Positions 2,868 to 56,163 of a DNA stretch of 64,000 nucleotides are shown piece by piece. Under the pieces are notes generated by a model, which was given only the letters and a program-made list of their open reading frames with translations, searched no databases and was not told the DNA's origin. Positions within the stretch are counted from its first letter, which is position 1. The number at the start of each line of letters is the position of its first letter. The DNA lies in NCBI GenBank assembly GCA_964612055.1, contig CAZTBI010000003.1:40268-104267 (forward strand), in the 5' to 3' direction. The stretch comes from an uncultured Bdellovibrionales bacterium (lineage in GTDB: Bacteria > Patescibacteriota > Minisyncoccia > Moranbacterales > UBA1568). Both the position numbers and the translations under genes were made by a program.

Positions 2868-3983
2868 TTAATCATTCAATAAAACAGAAAGGTTTGCTGC
2901 GCACCCCTCCCAAGAGAATCTTTTGATATTTTCCCTACCTTTTGAAATTATACCATTTCTCATGCCCTCGTCCGAAAGGAGCTTCTGAGCCCCTTCGGCG
3001 ATACTTTCTACACTTGCAGGGTCCACAAATACCGCTCCATCCCCTGCTACTTCGGGTAAAGATGACGTACTAGATGTCACCACTGGTACCCCGACACTCT
3101 GAGCTTCCAAAACCGGTATGCCAAAACCTTCGTAGAGCGTTGGGAAAAGAAAAACATCAGCATTTTGAAGGAGTGGCCATTTCTCTTCTTCGACTACGTA
3201 TCCTTTCTCGATAATGGCGCTCTGATATTTGCTCTTTGCTATCTGTTGTTTGATTCTATCGTATCCATAGCCTGGCTTCCCAACCAAGAGAAGTTCGTGT
3301 GGTATTTGGTACTTTTCTTTCAGCATTTCAAACGCCTCGATAATTCGCACAATATTTTTTCGTTCTTCCAAGCGCCCAATAAAAAGTAAGTATGGTTTCT
3401 CCGACTTTTTTATTGATTGTTGATTGTTTTCTGGTAATTGTTTTTCGTAGCCTTCGGAGACAACGCGAATCTTTCCTTCGGACACTCCATAGAAACCCGT
3501 CACATCACGCTTGGTATTTTCTGAGACACAGATAACCGTGCTCGCTACCTGACAAGAAAACATAATCGAGTAGTGCATGTAGACCCGCTCCCAAAAAGAG
3601 TAGGCTTCTTTACAAAACTCATACTCCAAACCATGGATGGTGACGATCGTCTTCTTAGGATGGATGAGCGGTACCGTGTGCGCTGGCACAAACAAAACGT
3701 CCGGCGTATGAAAAAGCATTTCCAGTGATAATCCTATCTGGGTCCAAAAACGTGGCGCCCATAATCCGCGCACTGTCCAATTTCTCGGCAACTCAAAATC
3801 AATATCTGGAATTTTCAAAGACATACGACCGTGAGCAAAAGAAAGTTTCTTACGAACGTACAAAACCACCTCCGCATCACGAGGCAGCTCATCACGCAGG
3901 TGCTTGATCACCTGATAGCTATACTCTTCTATCCCGGTTCGTCGTTTGAGAAACGCCCGTGACGCGTCAATTCCGATGATCAT
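2868..3983 (-). CDS. GT4-family glycosyltransferase
   Basis: EGFGIPVLEAQSVGVPVVTSSTSSLPEVAGDGAVFVDP. The track start at 4055 is a TTG inside the repeat element; the likely start is MIIGIDASRAF at 3983. Confidence 0.8.
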   Translation of the reverse strand: MIIGIDASRAFLKRRTGIEEYSYQVIKHLRDELPRDAEVVLYVRKKLSFAHGRMSLKIPDIDFELPRNWTVRGLWAPRFWTQIGLSLEMLFHTPDVLFVPAHTVPLIHPKKTIVTIHGLEYEFCKEAYSFWERVYMHYSIMFSCQVASTVICVSENTKRDVTGFYGVSEGKIRVVSEGYEKQLPENNQQSIKKSEKPYLLFIGRLEERKNIVRIIEAFEMLKEKYQIPHELLLVGKPGYGYDRIKQQIAKSKYQSAIIEKGYVVEEEKWPLLQNADVFLFPTLYEGFGIPVLEAQSVGVPVVTSSTSSLPEVAGDGAVFVDPASVESIAEGAQKLLSDEGMRNGIISKGRENIKRFSWEGCAANLSVLLND

Positions 3984-4012
3984 AGAAATTCCGGTAAATT
4001 TCGAAAGCTTGG

Positions 4013-4178
4013 AAAGATATTTCTTTTCTGAACTCCCGGTTGACGTCGGTAACATTTCTGATGAATGAGCCGCTAGAAATGATTGATTCTCGATGGCTTC
4101 GAGTATGTGAGATCATTTCTCGGTCGAGAGAGTCAGAAATGTTCGACGGAAAGAAAGGGGAAGAAAAGGAATATCTTT
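4013..4178. repeat. MITE-like ~166-bp intergenic hairpin element, copy A
   Basis: Differs from copy B (18295..18460) at 3 positions. Terminal inverted repeats AAAGATATTTCTTTTC / GAAAAGGAATATCTTT. Nested internal inverted repeats AACATTTCTGA/TCAGAAATGTT, AGAAATGAT/ATCATTTCT and CTCGA/TCGAG. Confidence 0.7.
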
Positions 4179-4194
4179 TGAAGCTGCCACAAAA

Positions 4195-5223
4195 CTATTT
4201 CGCCAGCATGATACTGCGCTTGTAGAGCTCGAGGTTTTCGAGCACAATCCCCGTCCCCTTCACCACGCAAAATGCTGGATCATCCGCCACATAGCACGGC
4301 ACATTGATCGTCTTTGATATCAGCTGATCGAGATATTTCAGTTGAGCCGTTCCGCCAGAAAGCACCATCCCTTTATCCATAATATCCGCTGCCAATTCCG
4401 GCGGCGTTTCCTGAAGCACCTGCTTGATGACATTGATAATCTCACGCAGTTCATCCTGGATCGCTTCGGTGACCTCGTTCGACGAGACCGTGATCGTCTT
4501 CGGCAAACCACCCATCAGGTCCCGACCCCGAACATCCATGTGCTCCTCCTTCACCTGAGCGATAGCTGACCCGATCTTCATCTTGATCTCCTCAGCCGTT
4601 CGATCACCGATCGCCAAACTGTGTTTACGCTTGATGTAATCCGAAATGGCCTGATCGATTTTGTTCCCACCAACACGAGCACTGTGAGACGCCACCACGC
4701 CACCAAGAGAAATAATAGCAATCTCCGATGTCCCGCCGCCAATATTGATAATCATATTCCCCTGCGCTGTATGAATCGGAATACCCGCCCCGATAGCAGC
4801 AAGGATCGGCTCTTTCACTACATAGGCAGCCTTGGCTCCAGCTTTCAGTGCCGCATCGATGACCGCGCGTCGTTCAGTCGAAGTAATACCAGCAGGAATA
4901 GACAGTACCACTTCTGGACGAAAGAAACGCACTCTACCACCCACCTTGTTCAAAAAGTATTTAAGCATCGCCTCGGTAATACGGTAATCCGCGATAGCAC
5001 CATCACGCAGTGGCTGACTCGCCACAATCGTATCCGGTGTGCGACCGAGCATTTCCTTGGCTTCATTACCGACCGCGAGCACCTTGTTCTCTGTCAGTGA
5101 AATAGCAACTACCGAAGGTTCGTTAATCACCACACCTTTCCCTGGCACAAAGACCAAGGTATTGGCTGTACCCAAGTCGATCCCGATTTTCCGCAAAAAC
5201 ATGGATTTCATATCAAAACTCAT
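4195..5223 (-). CDS. mreB: rod-shape-determining actin homologue MreB
   Basis: IGIDLGTANTLVFV N-terminal actin fold; length 342 aa. Confidence 0.9.
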   Translation of the reverse strand: MSFDMKSMFLRKIGIDLGTANTLVFVPGKGVVINEPSVVAISLTENKVLAVGNEAKEMLGRTPDTIVASQPLRDGAIADYRITEAMLKYFLNKVGGRVRFFRPEVVLSIPAGITSTERRAVIDAALKAGAKAAYVVKEPILAAIGAGIPIHTAQGNMIINIGGGTSEIAIISLGGVVASHSARVGGNKIDQAISDYIKRKHSLAIGDRTAEEIKMKIGSAIAQVKEEHMDVRGRDLMGGLPKTITVSSNEVTEAIQDELREIINVIKQVLQETPPELAADIMDKGMVLSGGTAQLKYLDQLISKTINVPCYVADDPAFCVVKGTGIVLENLELYKRSIMLAK

Positions 5224-6485
5224 GACAGATCCTTTCTTTTTATCTCTGCGCCAATTTTTTGTAGGCGTTCTTCGATACGTTCATAACCACGATCTACCTG
5301 ATAAATTTCTTCGATTATGGTTTTCCCTTGAGCCGTCAGAGCCGCAATGATGAGAGCCGCCCCCGCTCGCAAATCATAGCTCTTGATCATCGTTCCCATA
5401 AGCTTTGTTTTTCCGGAAATGACTACTTGATGTGGATTGAGCACTTCAATTTTTCCACCCATCTTCTGTATCTCTGGAACATAGTTGAAGCGGCCCTCGA
5501 AAAGCGTATCAAAAACAAATGTCTCACCCTCCGCCTGGGTCGCCAAGACTCCAAAAGGCGCCTGCACATCAGTCGGCAATCCCGGATAGACGCGCGTATC
5601 GAGTTTCGTAACAGCACGTAACTTTTTTGCTGGCACGACGGTAATCTCATTTTTCTTCACGGAAAAATCAGCACCAAATTCACGGAGCTTTTCTAAGACC
5701 AGATCCAGATGTTCTTCACGAGCGTTTTTCACCGTGATCGGACTACCGGTCGCTACACCCAGGATAAGAAACGTAGCGGCTTCATTGGCATCAGGAATCA
5801 CCGCATGTTTCACACCTTTCAATTTTTTTGTTCCTTGAATTTCCAAGACATTCGTTCCGAGACCTTTGATCTTGGCTCCCATGGCCACAAGAAATTTTCC
5901 CAGATCCTCGACATGCGGTTCACAGGCAGCGATTTTGATAATTGTCTTCCCTGGCATACTGGCCGCAAGCATCATAGCATTCTCTGTCCCAGTCACTGAA
6001 AACTCGCGCAGTACCACCATAGCCGGATGACGCTTGGTAGCATCAACCACATAGCCTTTTTCTTTTGCTTGTACTCGCACGCCCATTTTCTGCAAAGCAT
6101 CGAGATGAGTATCCACCGGACGAGCACCGATGAGACAGCCACCGGGACGATAAAAAGAAAAATGATCGAAGCGCGCGGCCAGTGACCCCCATAGAAGAAT
6201 CGACGAACGAAGTTGTTTCACCAGTTCCGTATCCATTTTTTTCGGATCGATATTTTTAGCGGTGATCGCGACCGTGCGTTTCCCACGCCACTTCACTTCC
6301 GCTCCCAAGCTTTCCAAAATTTCGAGCATACGAAAAACATCCTCAATCAAAGGGATATTGCTAATCACACAGGTCTCTTTGGTCAGAAGCGTGGCAGCCA
6401 AAATCGGCGTCGTGGCATTCTTTGAACCACAGACGATTATCTCGCCTTTAAGCCTTTTTCCACCCTGTATTTCAAAAACTTCCAT
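5220..6485 (-). CDS. murA: UDP-N-acetylglucosamine 1-carboxyvinyltransferase
   Basis: MEVFEIQGGKRLKGEIIVCGSKNA matches the MurA N-terminus; ~420 aa. The track start at 6521 is a TTG that is actually the -35 element. Confidence 0.9.
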   Translation of the reverse strand: MEVFEIQGGKRLKGEIIVCGSKNATTPILAATLLTKETCVISNIPLIEDVFRMLEILESLGAEVKWRGKRTVAITAKNIDPKKMDTELVKQLRSSILLWGSLAARFDHFSFYRPGGCLIGARPVDTHLDALQKMGVRVQAKEKGYVVDATKRHPAMVVLREFSVTGTENAMMLAASMPGKTIIKIAACEPHVEDLGKFLVAMGAKIKGLGTNVLEIQGTKKLKGVKHAVIPDANEAATFLILGVATGSPITVKNAREEHLDLVLEKLREFGADFSVKKNEITVVPAKKLRAVTKLDTRVYPGLPTDVQAPFGVLATQAEGETFVFDTLFEGRFNYVPEIQKMGGKIEVLNPHQVVISGKTKLMGTMIKSYDLRAGAALIIAALTAQGKTIIEEIYQVDRGYERIEERLQKIGAEIKRKDLS

Positions 6486-6492
6486 ACTGGCT

Positions 6493-6521
6493 AGTATAGC
6501 CCAGGGTAAGGCACTTTTCAA
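6493..6521 (-). promoter_or_regulatory. sigma70-like promoter of murA (leaderless arrangement)
   Basis: Minus strand TTGAAA-17 nt-TATACT. The -10 ends 7 nt upstream of the murA ATG, with no Shine-Dalgarno. Confidence 0.6.
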
Positions 6522-6693
6522 GTCTCGGGAAATTTTAAACGGCTGGGAGAAGTTTTTCTCGGCCAGCCGTGATTTTTGCCATTCTAATGGCGAGAGTATG
6601 GGAACATACCCTGCTTGTTTTTGTTTTGGTTTTTATTTTTAAAGGACTTGTGGGAAATTTTCCCGAGAGAAAGCACTGTTAATGCACTCTCTC

Positions 6694-6735
6694 GGAAAAA
6701 AGAAAACGGGTGTTTCACCCCCTGGAAACACCCGT
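6694..6735 (-). terminator. rho-independent terminator after trxB
   Basis: Minus strand ACGGGTGTTTC-loop-GAAACACCCGT followed by TTTTCTTTTTT. Confidence 0.8.
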
Positions 6736-6785
6736 CCTCTTACTTGTAAATACAGTATAGCACGTTTTTTCACTCTTGTAAAGAG

Positions 6786-8845: not shown

Positions 8846-8866
8846 ATATACCCTCTGGGGGTATAT
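8846..8866. promoter_or_regulatory. CsoR-type operator palindrome overlapping the -10 of the csoR-like promoter
   Basis: ATATACCC-TCTGG-GGGTATAT, a 21-bp inverted repeat. It closely resembles the published GTA-rich/C-G tract CsoR operators (TACCC...GGGTA) from memory. It overlaps TAATAT (-10, ~8863-8868), with TTGACC (-35, ~8886-8891) 17 nt upstream. Confidence 0.7.
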
Positions 8867-9087
8867 TACACCAAGAGTCAAATCTGGTCAAGAGGGACTA
8901 AAAAGAATACAAGAGGCAAGTATTTTCTCTTCCCAAGAATTCTCTCAGGCGAGCCTGGAGCCAAAAGCATGGCCTTTCCCACCTCGGGAAAGTTTTGGCG
9001 GAAGATTCAGAAAAAATCACGCTGGGATTTTCTCGGCATGAGAGAGTTGCTTGGGAGCGAGAAGGCTATACCCCCTAATTTTTGACG

Positions 9088-17880: not shown

Positions 17881-18279
17881 TTACCTTTTTTCAAGCCAAG
17901 ACTGAAGAATAATCCGAGCCGCCTCTGTATCATCCTGAGAAGAAACTTGAGAGTACCCCTGGGCAATGAGGTTACTCTGGGCCATTTTTGACGTAAACAT
18001 CTCATCCTGATACTCCACGGCTACTTCGAAGCGTTCCGATATACGTTTTCCCAGTTTTTCACCTTCGTGATCCCCCTTATAAGTGTCACTTTTGTGTATT
18101 CCAATAATCACTGTTCCGACTTCTTCCTTTTGAAGAAGCGCTCCAATCTCTTCCAAAAGCCCCTCATCATTTTTGAGAACCCCATAAGGAAGCGCTATAC
18201 CGGTTTCCTCATGCGCCAAAGCGACCCCCACTTTGGAGGAGCCCCAATCAAGCCCGAGATAATTCTTTGCGTCATTCAT
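17881..18279 (-). CDS. ruvX: Holliday-junction resolvase-like RNase RuvX/YqgF
   Basis: YLGLDWGSSKVGVALA N-terminal RNase H-like motif; 132 aa. Confidence 0.85.
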   Translation of the reverse strand: MNDAKNYLGLDWGSSKVGVALAHEETGIALPYGVLKNDEGLLEEIGALLQKEEVGTVIIGIHKSDTYKGDHEGEKLGKRISERFEVAVEYQDEMFTSKMAQSNLIAQGYSQVSSQDDTEAARIILQSWLEKR

Positions 18280-18294
18280 AGAAGAAAATTGTTC

Positions 18295-18460
18295 AAAGAT
18301 ATTTCTTTTCTGAATTCCTGATTGACGTCGGTAACATTTCTGATGAATGAGCCGCTAGAAATGATTGATTCTCGATGGCTTCGAGTATGTGAGATCATTT
18401 CTCGGTCGAGAGAGTCAGAAATGTTCGACGGAAAGAAAGGGGAAGAAAAGGAATATCTTT
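18295..18460. repeat. MITE-like ~166-bp intergenic hairpin element, copy B
   Basis: Same terminal inverted repeats and internal hairpins as copy A (4013..4178). It lies just 3' of the map stop; copy A lies just 3' of the mreB stop. Confidence 0.7.
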
Positions 18461-18478
18461 GGATAATTTTTACACAAA

Positions 18479-19252
18479 CTACACTCTCGTCAAAACTTCT
18501 GCGCCATTCTCCGTAATCACTACCGTATCCTCAAAGTGCGCGGAGAGCTTTCCATCAGCCGTAATAAATGTCCAGTCGTCGGGAGCGATATCTACCGTAA
18601 AGGTGCCGACATTAATCATTGGCTCCAAAGCCAAGGTCATGCCTTTTTCAAGAACAAAGTCATGCATATGTCGAGATACATAGTTTGGTACTTGCGGATC
18701 TTCATGGAGCTCTCGGCCGACACCATGACCAACGAGATCGCGCACCACGGAAAAGCCATTCTCTTCCACAAAACTCTGAACCGCCTCTGCATAGGCTGAA
18801 ATCGAAGCGCCTGGTCGAAGCGTCGCGATACCACGCTCCAGACTCTCCTTGGTTACCGCTACCAGCTTTTCTGCCTCTGCTGTAACCTTGCCCACCATCA
18901 CGGTACGCGCCATATCACTCACCATCCCCTCAAAACGCATACCGATATCAAGTTTCAGGAGATCCCCATCCTTGATAATACGATCTGCCCGCGGAATACC
19001 GTGTACTACTTCATCATTCAGCGATACACAGATAGTAGCCGGAAAGGGCCGATCAGAACCGGCGTTGTAGCCTTTGAAAATGGGTATACCCCCTGCCTCC
19101 CTGATAAGTCGTTCGGCCAAAACATCGATAGCTTCCGTCGTCATACCCGGTTCTACCGCTTTGATAACCGTCTCGAGCACGGTGGCTAGACGCTTGCCAG
19201 ATTCTCGCAAACGCTTGATTTCATCTTCAGTTTTGATCCAATCTTTCGCCAT
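18479..19252 (-). CDS. map: type I methionine aminopeptidase
   Basis: DEVVHGIP and HGVGRELHEDPQVPNY metal-ligand motifs. Confidence 0.9.
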   Translation of the reverse strand: MAKDWIKTEDEIKRLRESGKRLATVLETVIKAVEPGMTTEAIDVLAERLIREAGGIPIFKGYNAGSDRPFPATICVSLNDEVVHGIPRADRIIKDGDLLKLDIGMRFEGMVSDMARTVMVGKVTAEAEKLVAVTKESLERGIATLRPGASISAYAEAVQSFVEENGFSVVRDLVGHGVGRELHEDPQVPNYVSRHMHDFVLEKGMTLALEPMINVGTFTVDIAPDDWTFITADGKLSAHFEDTVVITENGAEVLTRV

Positions 19253-51667: not shown

Positions 51668-51683
51668 AAAGACGGCGCAATAG

Positions 51684-51714
51684 AAAAAGACCAGCTCTAC
51701 GCTGGTCTTTTTTG
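51684..51714 (+). terminator. rho-independent terminator after pth
   Basis: AGACCAGC-tctac-GCTGGTCT followed by TTTTTTGT. Confidence 0.85.
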
Positions 51715-51947
51715 TGGTCGTTTCTCATTTCTATCCTCAGCCGGTAAAAACGGCAGCGAACTGCCATTTTCACACATTTCAGAAAGAACCTGCTAGGAGG
51801 GATGCCTGTACTTTCCCTGAGGACAGAAATCAAAAACCACCCTTATAACGTAAGTCTCATCATAGCAAAAATCCGCCCTTCTGTCAATTCACCCAGTGAA
51901 ATCCTCGCGAAGCTAAGGTATCCGTTTATGCGGATAATTTCATAGGG

Positions 51948-51987
51948 TAAAAGAAAAAGAGCCCTGCTACTTGCGTAGACAGGGCTC
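51948..51987 (-). terminator. rho-independent terminator after the flotillin gene
   Basis: Minus strand GAGCCCTG-tctacgcaagtag-CAGGGCTC followed by TTTTTCTTTT. Confidence 0.75.
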
Positions 51988-52018
51988 GGGCTTCACACGG
52001 CGTTGCCGCTAAAGCGAG

Positions 52019-53860
52019 TTACTTCTTGTCAGATGCCCCAGCCGTCGCAAACGCTTCGCCGGTCAGTGCGGTCTTGGCCTCACCGATCGAATCAGGCGTC
52101 AACTTGTCGAAGTCGAAGCCGAACTTGGCAGCGAACTGCTTCAGCACGTCTCCGTACCCCATGCTCTTGGCCTTCTCGATGAGACCGAAGATGGTCTCGT
52201 TCGGCATCGCAGCGAACTGCTTCAGCACATTGCCGTTGCCAGCCTGGCCGTTGCCGCCCATATCGATGATGCGCACCTCGTCGATGTTGCCGAGACCTTG
52301 GCCGATGGCTTCTGCAACCGGTACCATGATCTCCTTGGCAACTGCGCCAACGGCCGTGAGGACCGGAGGCAGTGCCTCGAGGATCATGAGGATTCGGCCA
52401 GTATCGTCGAGCTTCGCCAGCGCCTGTGCCCGTGCATCGATGCCTTCGGCTTCGGCCATGAGCCTGGCCTTGGTGACATCGGCTTCGGCCATGCCTTGAG
52501 CACGCGTACCGGTTGCACGCGCTTCGAGGTTGGCCTGCTCGACAGCTGCTGCTGCGAGGCCCTTGGCACGCTCACCGGCGGCTTCGGCTTCGGCTTCGGC
52601 CTGAGTGGCCTGTGCCAACCGCGTACGACCATCCGCTTCTGCTTGCTGCTTGGCGAGCTGGCCAGCTGCTTCTTTCTCAGCCGTGACGCGGAGTGCTTCG
52701 CCGCGTGCAGTAGCGGCATTCTGTTCAGCGTTGGCTGCCGCAACCGCTGCTTCGCCCTTCTTGGTAGCTTCGATAACCGCACCTTCGCCGCGCTTGGTGG
52801 CTTCAGCAACTGCTGCATCACCCTTCTTGAGGGCTTCGATGACCGCTGCTTCGCCCTTCTTGTTGGCCTGGACGATCACGGTGGCATTCATCTCAGCTTC
52901 GGTCCGCTGCCTGATCACATCTTGCAATGCGATTTGGGCTTGAGCCTCAGCTTGCTCGGCGGCGACGCCAGCAACCTTGAGCTTCTGGCCTTCTTCAGTT
53001 GCAGCGATCTCGGCAACGATCGGCACACGAGCCTTCTGGGCCCCGACCTTGGCTGCGTTGTCGGCGATCTGCATGTCACGGGCGCGTTCGGCATCCGAGA
53101 TAGCAGTGGTCGCTTCAGCCTTGGCCACTTCGCCTGCACGACGAGCGGCAGCAGACTGGACATCGCCACGACGCAGCGCCTCGGCTTCACCGATGCGTGC
53201 TTCCGCGACGACTTCCGCTGTCCGCTGCTTGCCGAGTGCTTCGATGTAACCTTCGGTATCAGTGACTTCCTGGATGGTCAGCAGGTCGATGGTCAGACCA
53301 AGCTTGGCCAAACTGCCATTGCCGATCTCAAGGGCACTCGTCTCGAACTGCTGACGATCACCGATGAGCTCTTCGACGGTCAACGTGGCGATGATGCCGC
53401 GCAGCACGCCGTCGAGGTTCTGCTTGGCCGTGTTACTGATGAAGGATTCGTCCTTGCCGAGGAAACGCTCGATCGCCAGAGCGAGCGAAGCGTCATCGGA
53501 GAGGATCTTGGTATTGCCAATGGCCTTCACACGAACCTGGACCCTGTTCTTGCTGGGAGCGACGACGTTCAGCTCCAAAGGGATGGTGTTGAGCGAAAGT
53601 GTCTGCACATCCTCCATGATGGGGATGCGCAGGAAGCCGCCGCCTTTCACCACTCGGTAGCCACGTTCAATTGCCTTCCCCTCATCACTGACCGACTTCC
53701 TCCTGCGGCCGAAGACGACCGCGACGACGTTGGGCGCGACCTTGGTGTACAGCTTCGAAACGGTGCGTAGCGTAGCGAGAACCACGCCGACGAGAACCAG
53801 AACGATCGCTGGAATGGTAAGCGCCGAAAAGACGCTATTGATTGTTTCCCACATGGTCAA
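52019..53860 (-). CDS. flotillin-like SPFH/band-7 protein (FloT-type, long Ala/Glu-rich helical tail)
   Basis: 613 aa. N-terminal TM helix. SPFH domain: YRVVKGGGFLRIPIMEDVQTLSLNTIPLELNV. About 250 aa of EA-repeat coiled coil follow. GC-rich locus. Confidence 0.8.
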   Translation of the reverse strand: MTMWETINSVFSALTIPAIVLVLVGVVLATLRTVSKLYTKVAPNVVAVVFGRRRKSVSDEGKAIERGYRVVKGGGFLRIPIMEDVQTLSLNTIPLELNVVAPSKNRVQVRVKAIGNTKILSDDASLALAIERFLGKDESFISNTAKQNLDGVLRGIIATLTVEELIGDRQQFETSALEIGNGSLAKLGLTIDLLTIQEVTDTEGYIEALGKQRTAEVVAEARIGEAEALRRGDVQSAAARRAGEVAKAEATTAISDAERARDMQIADNAAKVGAQKARVPIVAEIAATEEGQKLKVAGVAAEQAEAQAQIALQDVIRQRTEAEMNATVIVQANKKGEAAVIEALKKGDAAVAEATKRGEGAVIEATKKGEAAVAAANAEQNAATARGEALRVTAEKEAAGQLAKQQAEADGRTRLAQATQAEAEAEAAGERAKGLAAAAVEQANLEARATGTRAQGMAEADVTKARLMAEAEGIDARAQALAKLDDTGRILMILEALPPVLTAVGAVAKEIMVPVAEAIGQGLGNIDEVRIIDMGGNGQAGNGNVLKQFAAMPNETIFGLIEKAKSMGYGDVLKQFAAKFGFDFDKLTPDSIGEAKTALTGEAFATAGASDKK

Positions 53861-56013: not shown

Positions 56014-56163
56014 CCCCGCACCTTTTGTGCTGATATGCTTTATCCGGCGCACGGGCGAATAGCCCGATCCTATTCGGATCAGCGCCGGCATTTCAAAAAA
56101 TCACAGGACATTTTACTGTGTCGGGCGTTTGAAAAAACGGCACAAAAGGTGCGGGGTCAAGCC
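56005..56163. repeat. 159-bp element bounded by an 18-19-bp perfect inverted repeat, with nested internal hairpins
   Basis: Arms ACCCCGCACCTTTTGTGC (~56011-56030) and GCACAAAAGGTGCGGGGT (~56140-56157). The interior holds CCGGCGC...GCGCCGG enclosing CGGGC-gaata-GCCCG and GATCC-tattc-GGATC. Confidence 0.6.

Follow-up and report, generated by a model that had tools for sequence, protein, structure and literature searches.

Why should the same non-coding hairpin of 166 bp stand, almost letter for letter, behind two different housekeeping genes of one bacterium? This question is raised by a stretch of 64,000 nucleotides (hereafter the window) from an uncultured Bdellovibrionales bacterium, which GTDB places in the Patescibacteriota (assembly GCA_964612055.1, contig CAZTBI010000003.1, positions 40,268 to 104,267). 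An earlier note on the window had pointed out two near-identical hairpin elements just 3' of mreB and map, and had attributed them to recent transposition of a MITE (miniature inverted-repeat transposable element) or to a strongly selected structured RNA, such as a stabiliser in the 3' untranslated region. On the basis of current results, we give a somewhat better than even chance to the following answer: the 166-bp unit is a young subfamily of non-autonomous, mobile and structure-selected long-hairpin intergenic repeats that resemble MITEs, ERIC elements and REPINs.

The two copies, here called A and B, could be aligned without a gap and differed at 3 of 166 positions (C in copy A and T in copy B at 4033, again C and T at 4037, and G and A at 4039). 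A repeat finder grouped them as one family (169 nt, 98%), and their similarity broke off sharply at both ends, where the flanks are unrelated. No third copy could be found within the window by the repeat finder, by blastn with a word size of 7 or by a covariance-model scan with filters off. The covariance model matched copy A on the plus strand (4018-4175, 143 bits; only 21 bits on the minus strand) and copy B likewise (18300-18457, plus strand, 142 bits). The location of both copies, after the stop codon of a minus-strand gene and before the start of the next, was also as described earlier. Copy A ends 16 nt from the mreB stop codon (4195-4197) and starts 29 nt from the ATG (3983) of a family 4 glycosyltransferase (GT4) gene; copy B lies 18 nt from the map stop codon (18479) and 15 nt from the ruvX start (18279). 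A GT4 reading-frame start at 4055, which would overlap copy A, was rejected, the real start being the ATG at 3983. Nearly all genes of the window are on the minus strand, including the neighbours of both copies, and both copies are antisense to their operons.

4013-4178, plus strand (the better-folding orientation): 166-bp hairpin repeat, copy A, a member of the 'el' subfamily located in the mreB-GT4 spacer
4195-5223, minus strand: mreB, upstream gene of copy A (Pfam MreB_Mbl)
2868-3983, minus strand: GT4 glycosyltransferase gene, downstream gene of copy A (start at ATG 3983)
18295-18460, plus strand: copy B, with three substitutions relative to copy A, in the map-ruvX spacer
18479-19252, minus strand: map (methionine aminopeptidase), upstream gene of copy B (Pfam Peptidase_M24)
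17881-18279, minus strand: ruvX, downstream gene of copy B (Pfam RuvX)

Copy A folds as a single long imperfect hairpin, with -67.8 kcal/mol on the plus strand (z -7.6) and -51.4 kcal/mol on the minus strand (z -6.0); in neither case was any of 200 shuffled sequences as good. The terminal inverted repeats and the three stem tiers that had been proposed from the letters (CATTTCTGA/TCAGAAATG; AGAAATGAT/ATCATTTCT; CTCGA/TCGAG) are all present in the minimum-free-energy fold. On the plus strand the 5' arm is pyrimidine-rich and the 3' arm purine-rich, and this orientation was used as the convention for all related copies. The parts of the hairpin are as follows.

4013-4029, plus strand: 5' arm of the closing stem (AAAGATATTTCTTTTCT), the terminal inverted repeat of the earlier note, pairing with 4162-4178 in the minimum-free-energy fold
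4162-4178, plus strand: 3' arm of the closing stem (AGAAAAGGAATATCTTT), from the same fold and an inverted-repeat search
4033-4039, plus strand: variable stretch GAAYTCCYGRTTG, weakly paired and mostly internal loop, from the fold and the comparison of copies
4053-4141, plus strand: conserved module, a 9-bp stem CATTTCTGA/TCAGAAATG around a purine-rich internal loop, plus inner stems
4089-4103, plus strand: apical hairpin CTCGA-TGGCT-TCGAG with the family-conserved GATGG motif
4148-4171, plus strand: conserved purine tract GGAAAGAAAGGGGAAGAAAAGGAA, Shine-Dalgarno-like, pairing with the pyrimidine-rich 5' arm
4006-4185: extended palindrome of copy A (24-nt arms, 88%), in which the flanks AGCTT/AAGCT add 5 bp past a small bubble
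18285-18470: extended palindrome of copy B (27-nt arms, 89%), with flanks GAAAATTGTTC / GGATAATTTTT

In the fold of copy A, 4033 is unpaired, and 4037 and 4039 lie within short interrupted helices. The internal loop of the module has TGAATGAG on its 5' side (4062-4069) and a 3' side that ends in AGAGAG, with 4132 as its last base. Every known member of the family forms one imperfect hairpin of ∼75 bp with the same order of parts. At the base stands an outer stem that is copy-specific, often with an AAATATT-like word; it is followed by a conserved TTTTCTGAACTCCCGG block paired with GGAAAGAAAGGGGAAGAAAAGGAA, by the 9-bp stem CAT(YY)NTGA / TCA(RR)ATG and by the purine-rich internal loop, 5' UGA(G/A)(U/C)G(A/U)G and 3' (A)A(C/G)GAG, which on the predicted structure can likely be drawn as tandem G.A pairs. 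The inner stem is wholly different between subfamilies yet always complementary, and its apex bears GAUGG. TGATGA, GAGTCAG and ATGTTCG are invariant throughout the family. The closing stem of 16-17 nt constitutes the terminal inverted repeats, and across the family these termini are the least conserved part.

The palindrome extends slightly past the shared 166 bp into flanks that are specific to each copy. In copy A this adds a run of five pairs, which is not significant alone (P ∼0.1 in a test anchored at the element ends). In copy B 11 consecutive positions are paired at the base, three of them as G.T on the plus strand, and random flank pairs reach a run of at least seven with P = 0.016 in the same test. 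An unanchored duplex test of flank complementarity was uninformative, and the anchored test supports copy B only. Several copies in metagenome-assembled genomes (MAGs) have 9-16 additional pairs of unrelated sequence beyond the core. Such flanks could have arisen by insertion into the loops of small pre-existing hairpins, by self-priming at a hairpin intermediate whose 5' overhang is then filled in, or by palindrome extension through template switching, each of which is possible.

The stems of the hairpin are maintained by compensatory substitutions, and the internal-loop module and the apical GAUGG are constant. RNAalifold reported compensatory changes in 22 of 43 pairs. In a MAFFT alignment 96.9% of cells could pair, and both sides had changed in half of the core pairs (16/32). 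The covariation score was 0.366 compared with 0.163 ± 0.017 in shuffled alignments, none of which (0/500) reached it, and controls with slid partners stayed at or below 0.093. Thus, the check that the earlier note had suggested, RNA folding together with covariation across copies, gave a hairpin that is stable against shuffling and stems that covary across the family.

It should be noted that the structure is not strand-neutral. All 12 members folded better in the same orientation than as their reverse complement, by 9-29 kcal/mol, and both strands of family members still folded at -51 to -80 kcal/mol. When mismatches were counted arm against arm, in a strand-neutral comparison, G.T outnumbered A.C by 56 to 24; the nominal p of 5e-4 overstates this case because the copies are related. 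The orientation relative to the neighbouring genes was mixed (∼6 sense, 5 or 6 antisense). Because the better-folding strand does not track the mRNA strand, a purely cis-acting mRNA element is not favoured, and the 3'-stabiliser alternative of the earlier note has lost ground, since members occur in both orientations to host genes and yet the same element strand always folds better. An independent RNA gene is not favoured either, because a promoter would be expected and none was seen. Selection on a single-stranded form independent of host transcription, for example a transposition intermediate, would fit this pattern best. Two further ideas were considered and set aside. The element strand had a negative local GC skew in 9 of 12 copies, which is not significant and is confounded by gene orientation, so that a replication-strand bias of element orientation was rejected. 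A mutational C-to-T bias as the cause of the strand asymmetry was rejected as well, as the direction expected for the non-template strand, and likewise for the leading strand in the window, would be opposite to that observed.

The expectation that further members exist, in other genomes and at other loci, was borne out. Related strains were represented by contigs encoding exactly the MreB, Map, S8, RuvX or SSB proteins of the window. The same element was present in the mreB-GT spacer of two of them (L003 and L008) and in the map-ruvX spacer of four (L013, L014, L024, which is NCBI GCA_018060865.1, and L025), and diverged relatives were found in the murD-csoR spacer of L001 and L002 and 3' of map in L011. 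Among all copies of the el type, 4033, 4037 and 4039 were the sole variable positions, and the L003 copy was intermediate between A and B. A degenerate search pattern built from blocks common to the known copies (GAGTCANNNATGTTCGNNGNNAAGAAAG) identified seven loci in 185,579 species genomes, six in two Candidatus Moraniibacteriota MAGs (four of these in one MAG) and the seventh in a MAG labelled Bdellovibrionales. The same pattern yielded one further real member and one chance match (L022) in JGI metagenomes. No family member could be observed in viral contigs, plasmids, phages or Escherichia coli genomes, and a covariance-model search of 42 loci returned only copies already known. Pairwise identity within the family was 50-93%, and the subfamily of the window was 58-73% identical to the rest. 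Copies dispersed among unrelated flanks have thus been seen at two loci of the window, at a third locus in related contigs, which holds two members, and at four loci of one MAG.

The family appears to be confined to a clade of Candidatus Moraniibacteriota, within the candidate phyla radiation (CPR), and to metagenome contigs related to it. Each copy occupies a short spacer that separates housekeeping genes, with both orientations represented; no transposase gene stands near any copy, and the neighbours include recJ/dnaJ, a murJ-like gene, tmk, pth, map, GT4/holB, nifU, rseP and rtcB. In one Moraniibacteriota MAG (JBAQNF01, L018 2248-2406) a family member stands directly 3' of map in the opposite orientation and before a different downstream gene, which suggests an independent arrival at the same kind of site. 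The window had no Rfam match at the gathering score, and copy A, a distant member and an alternative spacer allele (see below) gave only noise at E values up to 10.

Comparison of closely related strains revealed that the occupancy of the spacers is variable. The contigs with an identical MreB form two clades, W (the window, L004, L006, L007 and L010) and L (L001, L002, L003, L005, L008 and L009), with 93-100% identity within either clade, 86-88% between them in mreB and lower values in GT. In the mreB-GT spacer there are two unrelated alleles, both of which segregate in each clade: a 211-nt allele bearing the 166-bp element in the window, L003 and L008, and a 165-nt 'alt' allele in all others. 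The 211-nt allele of the window is identical to that of L003 and L008 at 208 of 211 positions (98.6%), compared with 86.2% in mreB and 80.2% in GT, and on both sides the high-identity tract stops no more than ∼10 nt from the stop or start codon. Between the clades the alt allele, too, is 98.8% identical (mreB ∼86%). Within clade L, L003 and L001 have no mismatch in 198 nt and two in 240 nt beside the spacer, yet they carry different alleles.

L001 11030-11194 (also in L002, L004-L007, L009 and L010; corresponding to window 3984-4194): alt allele, a Y-shaped hairpin TATCACTATCAAACC...GGTTTATAGCGATA

The alt allele has no overall similarity to the 166-bp element and was missed by the covariance model. 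It nevertheless contains the module (stem, UGAGUGAG, inner hairpin and ACGAG, closed by the stem's return strand) in the same orientation as the family, and the strand with the module folds better (-60.8 versus -46.7 kcal/mol). A module search recovered every family member plus the alt allele and gave 0-1 matches in shuffled windows. This sharing points to recognition of the module by some factor.

Two further spacers behaved in a similar way. L011 shares 98.7% identity with the window, yet its map-ruvX spacer carries a member of another subfamily, and the divergence begins at the stop codon. Since L011 and the window thus differ outside the core as well, core-limited gene conversion was rejected at the map site as an explanation for the identity of copies A and B. 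At the murD-csoR spacer the contigs of clade L have two diverged members side by side in opposite orientation, and the window (8895-9087) has no family member and a third, weaker long-range hairpin (closing stem ∼25 bp, z ∼-3 on both strands).

L001 5911-6068, minus strand, and 6102-6259, plus strand: two diverged members in the murD-csoR spacer of clade-L contigs

Strains that are 96-99% identical to the window thus have a different hairpin in the same spacers, and in the three polymorphic spacers that were examined all alleles are long hairpins of one kind or another. In addition, six contigs end inside an element, as would be expected of a repeat that confuses assemblers. The turnover of spacer occupancy outpaces point mutation, and genomes 14-20% apart have one sequence in common. 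The view that the near-identity of the copies reflects recent spread is therefore strengthened, given that occupancy differs between close strains. This pattern would require either horizontal movement with precise boundaries, or an unusually complete constraint on the whole spacer combined with reassortment. Movement is favoured because the unpaired positions are as conserved as the paired ones and because the same core is present at two unrelated loci.

Two observations on intergenic regions may be added here. Just upstream of the gene for a CsoR-like metal-sensing repressor (PF02583) lies a good sigma-70-type promoter (window minus strand, 8848-8891; TTGACC at 8891-8886, a 17-nt spacer and TAATAT at 8868-8863). 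A palindrome with perfect arms, ATACCCCCAGAGGGTAT (8864-8848), overlaps this promoter and is conserved in L002 and L003, unlike the rest of the spacer; the palindrome is presumably the operator of the repressor gene. The region downstream of efp is also polymorphic among strains with an identical SSB: three contigs have a gap of ∼600 nt without called genes (L035 11260-11851, L041 3668-4273 and L042 3313-3918), and L036, L037 and L039 have a gap of 85 nt followed by a gene for 160 aa. The family model found no member in the efp downstream region of these strains.

How far does the 166-bp element agree with the definition of a MITE? MITEs are small elements without a transposase that form long stem-loops at the RNA level and are often co-transcribed at the 3' ends of genes (PMC3184786). 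The element is within the size limit (<∼400 bp) and has neither a transposase nor a conserved open reading frame (definition in PMC3184786). It is a dispersed non-coding hairpin repeat that has recently spread, and to this extent the earlier proposal of a recently transposed MITE holds; the part that did not find support concerns the duplication of a target site, a clean empty site and a matching insertion sequence. These and several other points weigh against a mobile repeat. The check for target-site duplications turned out negative: no direct repeat abuts copy A or copy B at any plausible boundary, and such short flank matches as exist (AGCTT, AATT) are palindromes in their own right and lie 2-5 nt out of register. 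No empty site was seen, as the alternative alleles of occupied spacers are always another hairpin. The replaced segment is the whole spacer, from the stop codon to near the next start; cassette replacement or very strong purifying selection would explain this pattern as readily as transposition. In ∼0.4 Mb of largely redundant sequence, no partner of the transposase, HUH/RAYT or reverse-transcriptase type could be identified; in the same material there was no half-element, and no autonomous insertion sequence with matching ends adjoins any copy. The copy number is low (two per 64 kb). Finally, the strand asymmetry was measured on related, non-independent copies and is in part due to the purine-rich loops, not to G.U pairs.

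The window also contains another hairpin repeat, unrelated to the first, which served as a control, as it is an intergenic MITE of the textbook kind.

56014-56156: second hairpin repeat, ∼145 bp, with perfect 18-nt terminal inverted repeats ACCCCGCACCTTTTGTGC / GCACAAAAGGTGCGGGGT

This repeat folds at -79.9 kcal/mol (z -8.6) and is flanked by a 4-bp duplication, TCAA, at 56010-13 and 56157-60. A copy that is ∼75% identical occurs in L006 (95-248), in the spacer just upstream of murA, where TTGA stands on both sides of it; at the corresponding place the window shows TTGA only once (6518-6521), which makes it a clean empty site, so the insertion is polymorphic between strains. As the second repeat shows both a duplication and an empty site, the test for these hallmarks works on this material. 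Both repeats are long intergenic hairpins that are polymorphic between strains, whereas perfect 18-bp terminal inverted repeats, a 4-bp duplication and a clean empty site were seen only in the second. The absence of these hallmarks from the 166-bp family suggests that the two probably use different mobilisation machinery.

Several explanations other than a mobile repeat have to be considered. It is almost inconceivable that the two copies arose by segmental duplication or by an assembly artefact, or that they are small protein-coding genes. They are 14 kb apart, and open reading frames of 40-64 aa can be read on both strands; however, their unrelated flanks show that they are not a segmental duplication, the same copies recur in independent assemblies from many samples, and most family members have stop codons within the reading frames. 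The peptides of the plus- and minus-strand frames had no match in a collection of 5.8 billion proteins, so that no additional copies came to light by way of wrongly called frames, and the earlier note was right to regard these frames as artefacts. An ordinary intrinsic terminator is very improbable at either locus. It is true that two genes are directly followed by the element on their 3' side and that several strains have the map site conserved, but a terminator scan found no site at either locus (that is, no short G+C-rich stem followed by a run of T), the hairpin is ∼75 bp long with an A+T-rich base, and members also lie directly upstream of genes and in both orientations. Thus, neither a larger duplication that includes the flanks nor an ordinary terminator, the two outcomes that the earlier note had set against its own reading, was found. 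A self-cleaving, hammerhead-like ribozyme (CUGAUGA ... GA ... GUC/A) was suggested by two motifs around a junction in copy A, CUGAUGA in the 5' arm and GAGUC-A in the 3' arm. We give this idea practically no credence and rejected it: most members have G or U where the invariant C3 would stand, the copies of the window read GAG for the GAA triplet, there is no third helix (helix III), and no ribozyme model matched at E values up to 10.

Two alternatives that take the hairpin as a functional part of the host deserve more attention. In one of them, which we consider possible but doubtful, the element is a multi-copy structured RNA gene whose better-folding strand is functional, for example as a protein-binding small RNA, with the copies as paralogues and the purine-rich internal loop and apical GAUGG as functional sites. 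Covarying stems with conserved loops are what is classically seen in a functional RNA; all members, with the distant alt allele among them, fold better on the same strand; the covariance model strongly prefers one orientation; and the spacer, unpaired positions included, is far more conserved than the synonymous sites of the flanking genes. On the other hand, no sigma-70-like promoter or terminator was seen in or beside the element (the one promoter-like match, 9/12 at 18493-18466, does not exceed chance), and there was no Rfam match. Since the orientation to operons is random, about half of the copies would need antisense transcription from inside a housekeeping gene. Moreover, the exchange of the element for unrelated sequence between close strains and the contig breaks at this point are the behaviour of a repeat rather than of an essential RNA gene. 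The other alternative, which we hold to be rather unlikely, is a non-mobile cis-acting intercistronic hairpin of the host (an RNase III/E site, 3' stabiliser or attenuator) that is under selection and has been reshuffled by ordinary recombination, that is, by horizontal transfer of intergenic regions and gene conversion between copies. It would agree with the constant location in spacers of co-directional housekeeping genes, a few nucleotides past the stop codon, with the stable folding of both strands, with the finding that all alleles of the three polymorphic spacers are long hairpins, each highly conserved across clades, and with the mRNA effects of ERIC and Correia elements (PMC3184786). 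However, the tract of identity ends ∼10 nt from the stop and start codons with no co-transferred flank, unlike homologous recombination through genes that are 14-20% diverged; an identical 166-bp core occurs at two loci with unrelated flanks; both orientations occur; and the strand asymmetry is independent of the mRNA strand. A mobile repeat therefore remains the reading that we prefer.

Among known systems, the behaviour of the family is closest to that of ERIC/IRU and Correia elements, and its lack of a duplication and apparent single-strand recognition are closest to REPINs; it is a member of none of them. ERIC/IRU (∼127 bp) and RU-2/YPAL (∼168 bp) are likewise imperfect palindromes of 130-170 bp with low to moderate copy number, and ERIC/IRU shares with the family its location in transcribed spacers and at the 3' ends of operons, the occurrence of both orientations and a presence that varies between related genomes at the same spacer. 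ERIC is reported to duplicate a TA target (De Gregorio 2005; Wilson & Sharp 2006). No duplication is seen in the 166-bp family, which also differs from ERIC in having copy-specific outer stems around a conserved core and a host in the CPR instead of the Enterobacteriaceae. No sequence similarity to ERIC, REP, BIME or RU-2 could be observed (blastn with a word size of 11 against 5,426 complete E. coli genomes, no match). Correia elements have fixed 26-bp terminal inverted repeats, a TA duplication and an IHF site; they are co-transcribed and act through RNase III processing of the hairpin. In the 166-bp family, by contrast, the termini are most variable, the interior is most conserved and there is no duplication. 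Similarities are that Correia/NEMIS, which are MITEs of Neisseria (104-157 bp), are also small, lack a transposase, form hairpins and lie in operon spacers (PMC3184786). A long RNA stem-loop of the ERIC type can affect mRNA decay (PMC3184786).

REPINs are mobilised by RAYT enzymes of the HUH type; they are non-autonomous extragenic hairpins that leave no target-site duplication and are thought to move as single-stranded DNA recognised by its structure (PMC3116915, PMC3337134). Such movement would fit the strand-specific folding of the 166-bp family. Nevertheless, REPINs are built from a pair of short REP seeds (∼20-25 nt) in inverted orientation and a spacer, have hundreds of copies along with one RAYT gene that REPs flank, and are mostly inherited vertically, whereas the family has a conserved core of ∼150 nt, two copies per 64 kb and no REP seeds, and is near-unchanged across genomes that are 14-20% apart. 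The attC sites of integrons are imperfect palindromes of 60-140 nt directly 3' of genes, and they are recognised as a folded single strand, of which only one is functional, by structure over sequence. They have conserved ends (R''/L'' and L'/R' boxes) and a variable centre, the opposite of the conserved centre and variable ends seen here; moreover, the neighbours of the 166-bp family are core housekeeping genes (mreB, map, ruvX and the glycosyltransferase gene) instead of cassettes, and there is no integrase nearby.

If the 166-bp unit is a mobile repeat, its conserved loops may be the recognition site of a trans-acting protein, either a mobilising enzyme or a nucleic-acid-binding factor of the host. 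As every copy folds better on the same strand, the form that is recognised would be single-stranded (single-stranded DNA or an RNA copy) rather than duplex terminal inverted repeats cut by a DDE transposase, and such recognition would explain the missing target-site duplication. The element would be co-transcribed with its operon and, by analogy with ERIC, Correia and REP elements, would probably act as an intercistronic hairpin, either as an RNase III/E processing site or as a 3' stabiliser. This effect on the mRNA would be secondary to the spread of the element.

A more specific form of this idea, which we put forward tentatively and do not expect to be the likelier outcome, is that the unit is a strand-specific, structure-recognised single-stranded element rather than a cut-and-paste MITE, and that some enzyme exchanges whole spacers by using the G.A-rich loop as a handle. 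Such an enzyme would swap 'hairpin cassettes' precisely from the stop codon to the next start, even between genomes that are 14-20% apart. Exchange of this kind would account for the missing duplication, for the copy-specific palindromic outer stems, for the sharp boundaries of identity at the gene ends and for the presence of unrelated hairpins with the same module and orientation in one spacer.

Some other features of the window were recorded. Two spacers have a strong predicted fold and no Rfam match: 6522-6785 (z -5.8 on the plus strand and -10.4 on the minus strand, with small hairpins at 6658-6700 and 6700-6741) and 51668-52018 (z -9.3 on the minus strand). A gene at 52019-53860 on the minus strand encodes a protein of 613 aa whose C-terminal half is rich in Ala, Glu and Lys and has 11-residue repeats; it accounts for a jump of the G+C content to 0.60 and for DNA repeats with a 33-nt period (52416-52872), and from its sequence alone it may be a flotillin/SPFH-like protein. 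The GC skew is negative throughout the window, and no tRNA or tmRNA gene could be found in its 64 kb.

No MITE-, REP- or ERIC-type repeat in CPR bacteria or Parcubacteria was described in the literature that we searched. The 166-bp unit and its relatives therefore represent a previously undescribed repeat family of a known kind, the bacterial non-autonomous intergenic hairpin repeats, and the first of this kind seen in a CPR phylum. The genomes of CPR bacteria are tiny and tightly packed, and the 166-bp family together with the classical MITE shows that their few spacers are actively colonised by hairpin repeats, which turn over faster than point mutation and break metagenome assemblies. In practice, the 166-bp family may be used as a strain marker and should be regarded as a source of contig breaks in Moraniibacteriota MAGs. 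The combination of selection on structure with an invariant loop module makes the family a useful case for studying how such repeats move and what they cost or bring to the host operon, and the near-identical spacers between genes that are 14-20% diverged provide a second reason for this. If the precise replacement of whole spacers is enzymatic, it would be new, and if cassette exchange is true, it would represent a new mode of mobile non-coding DNA in CPR bacteria.

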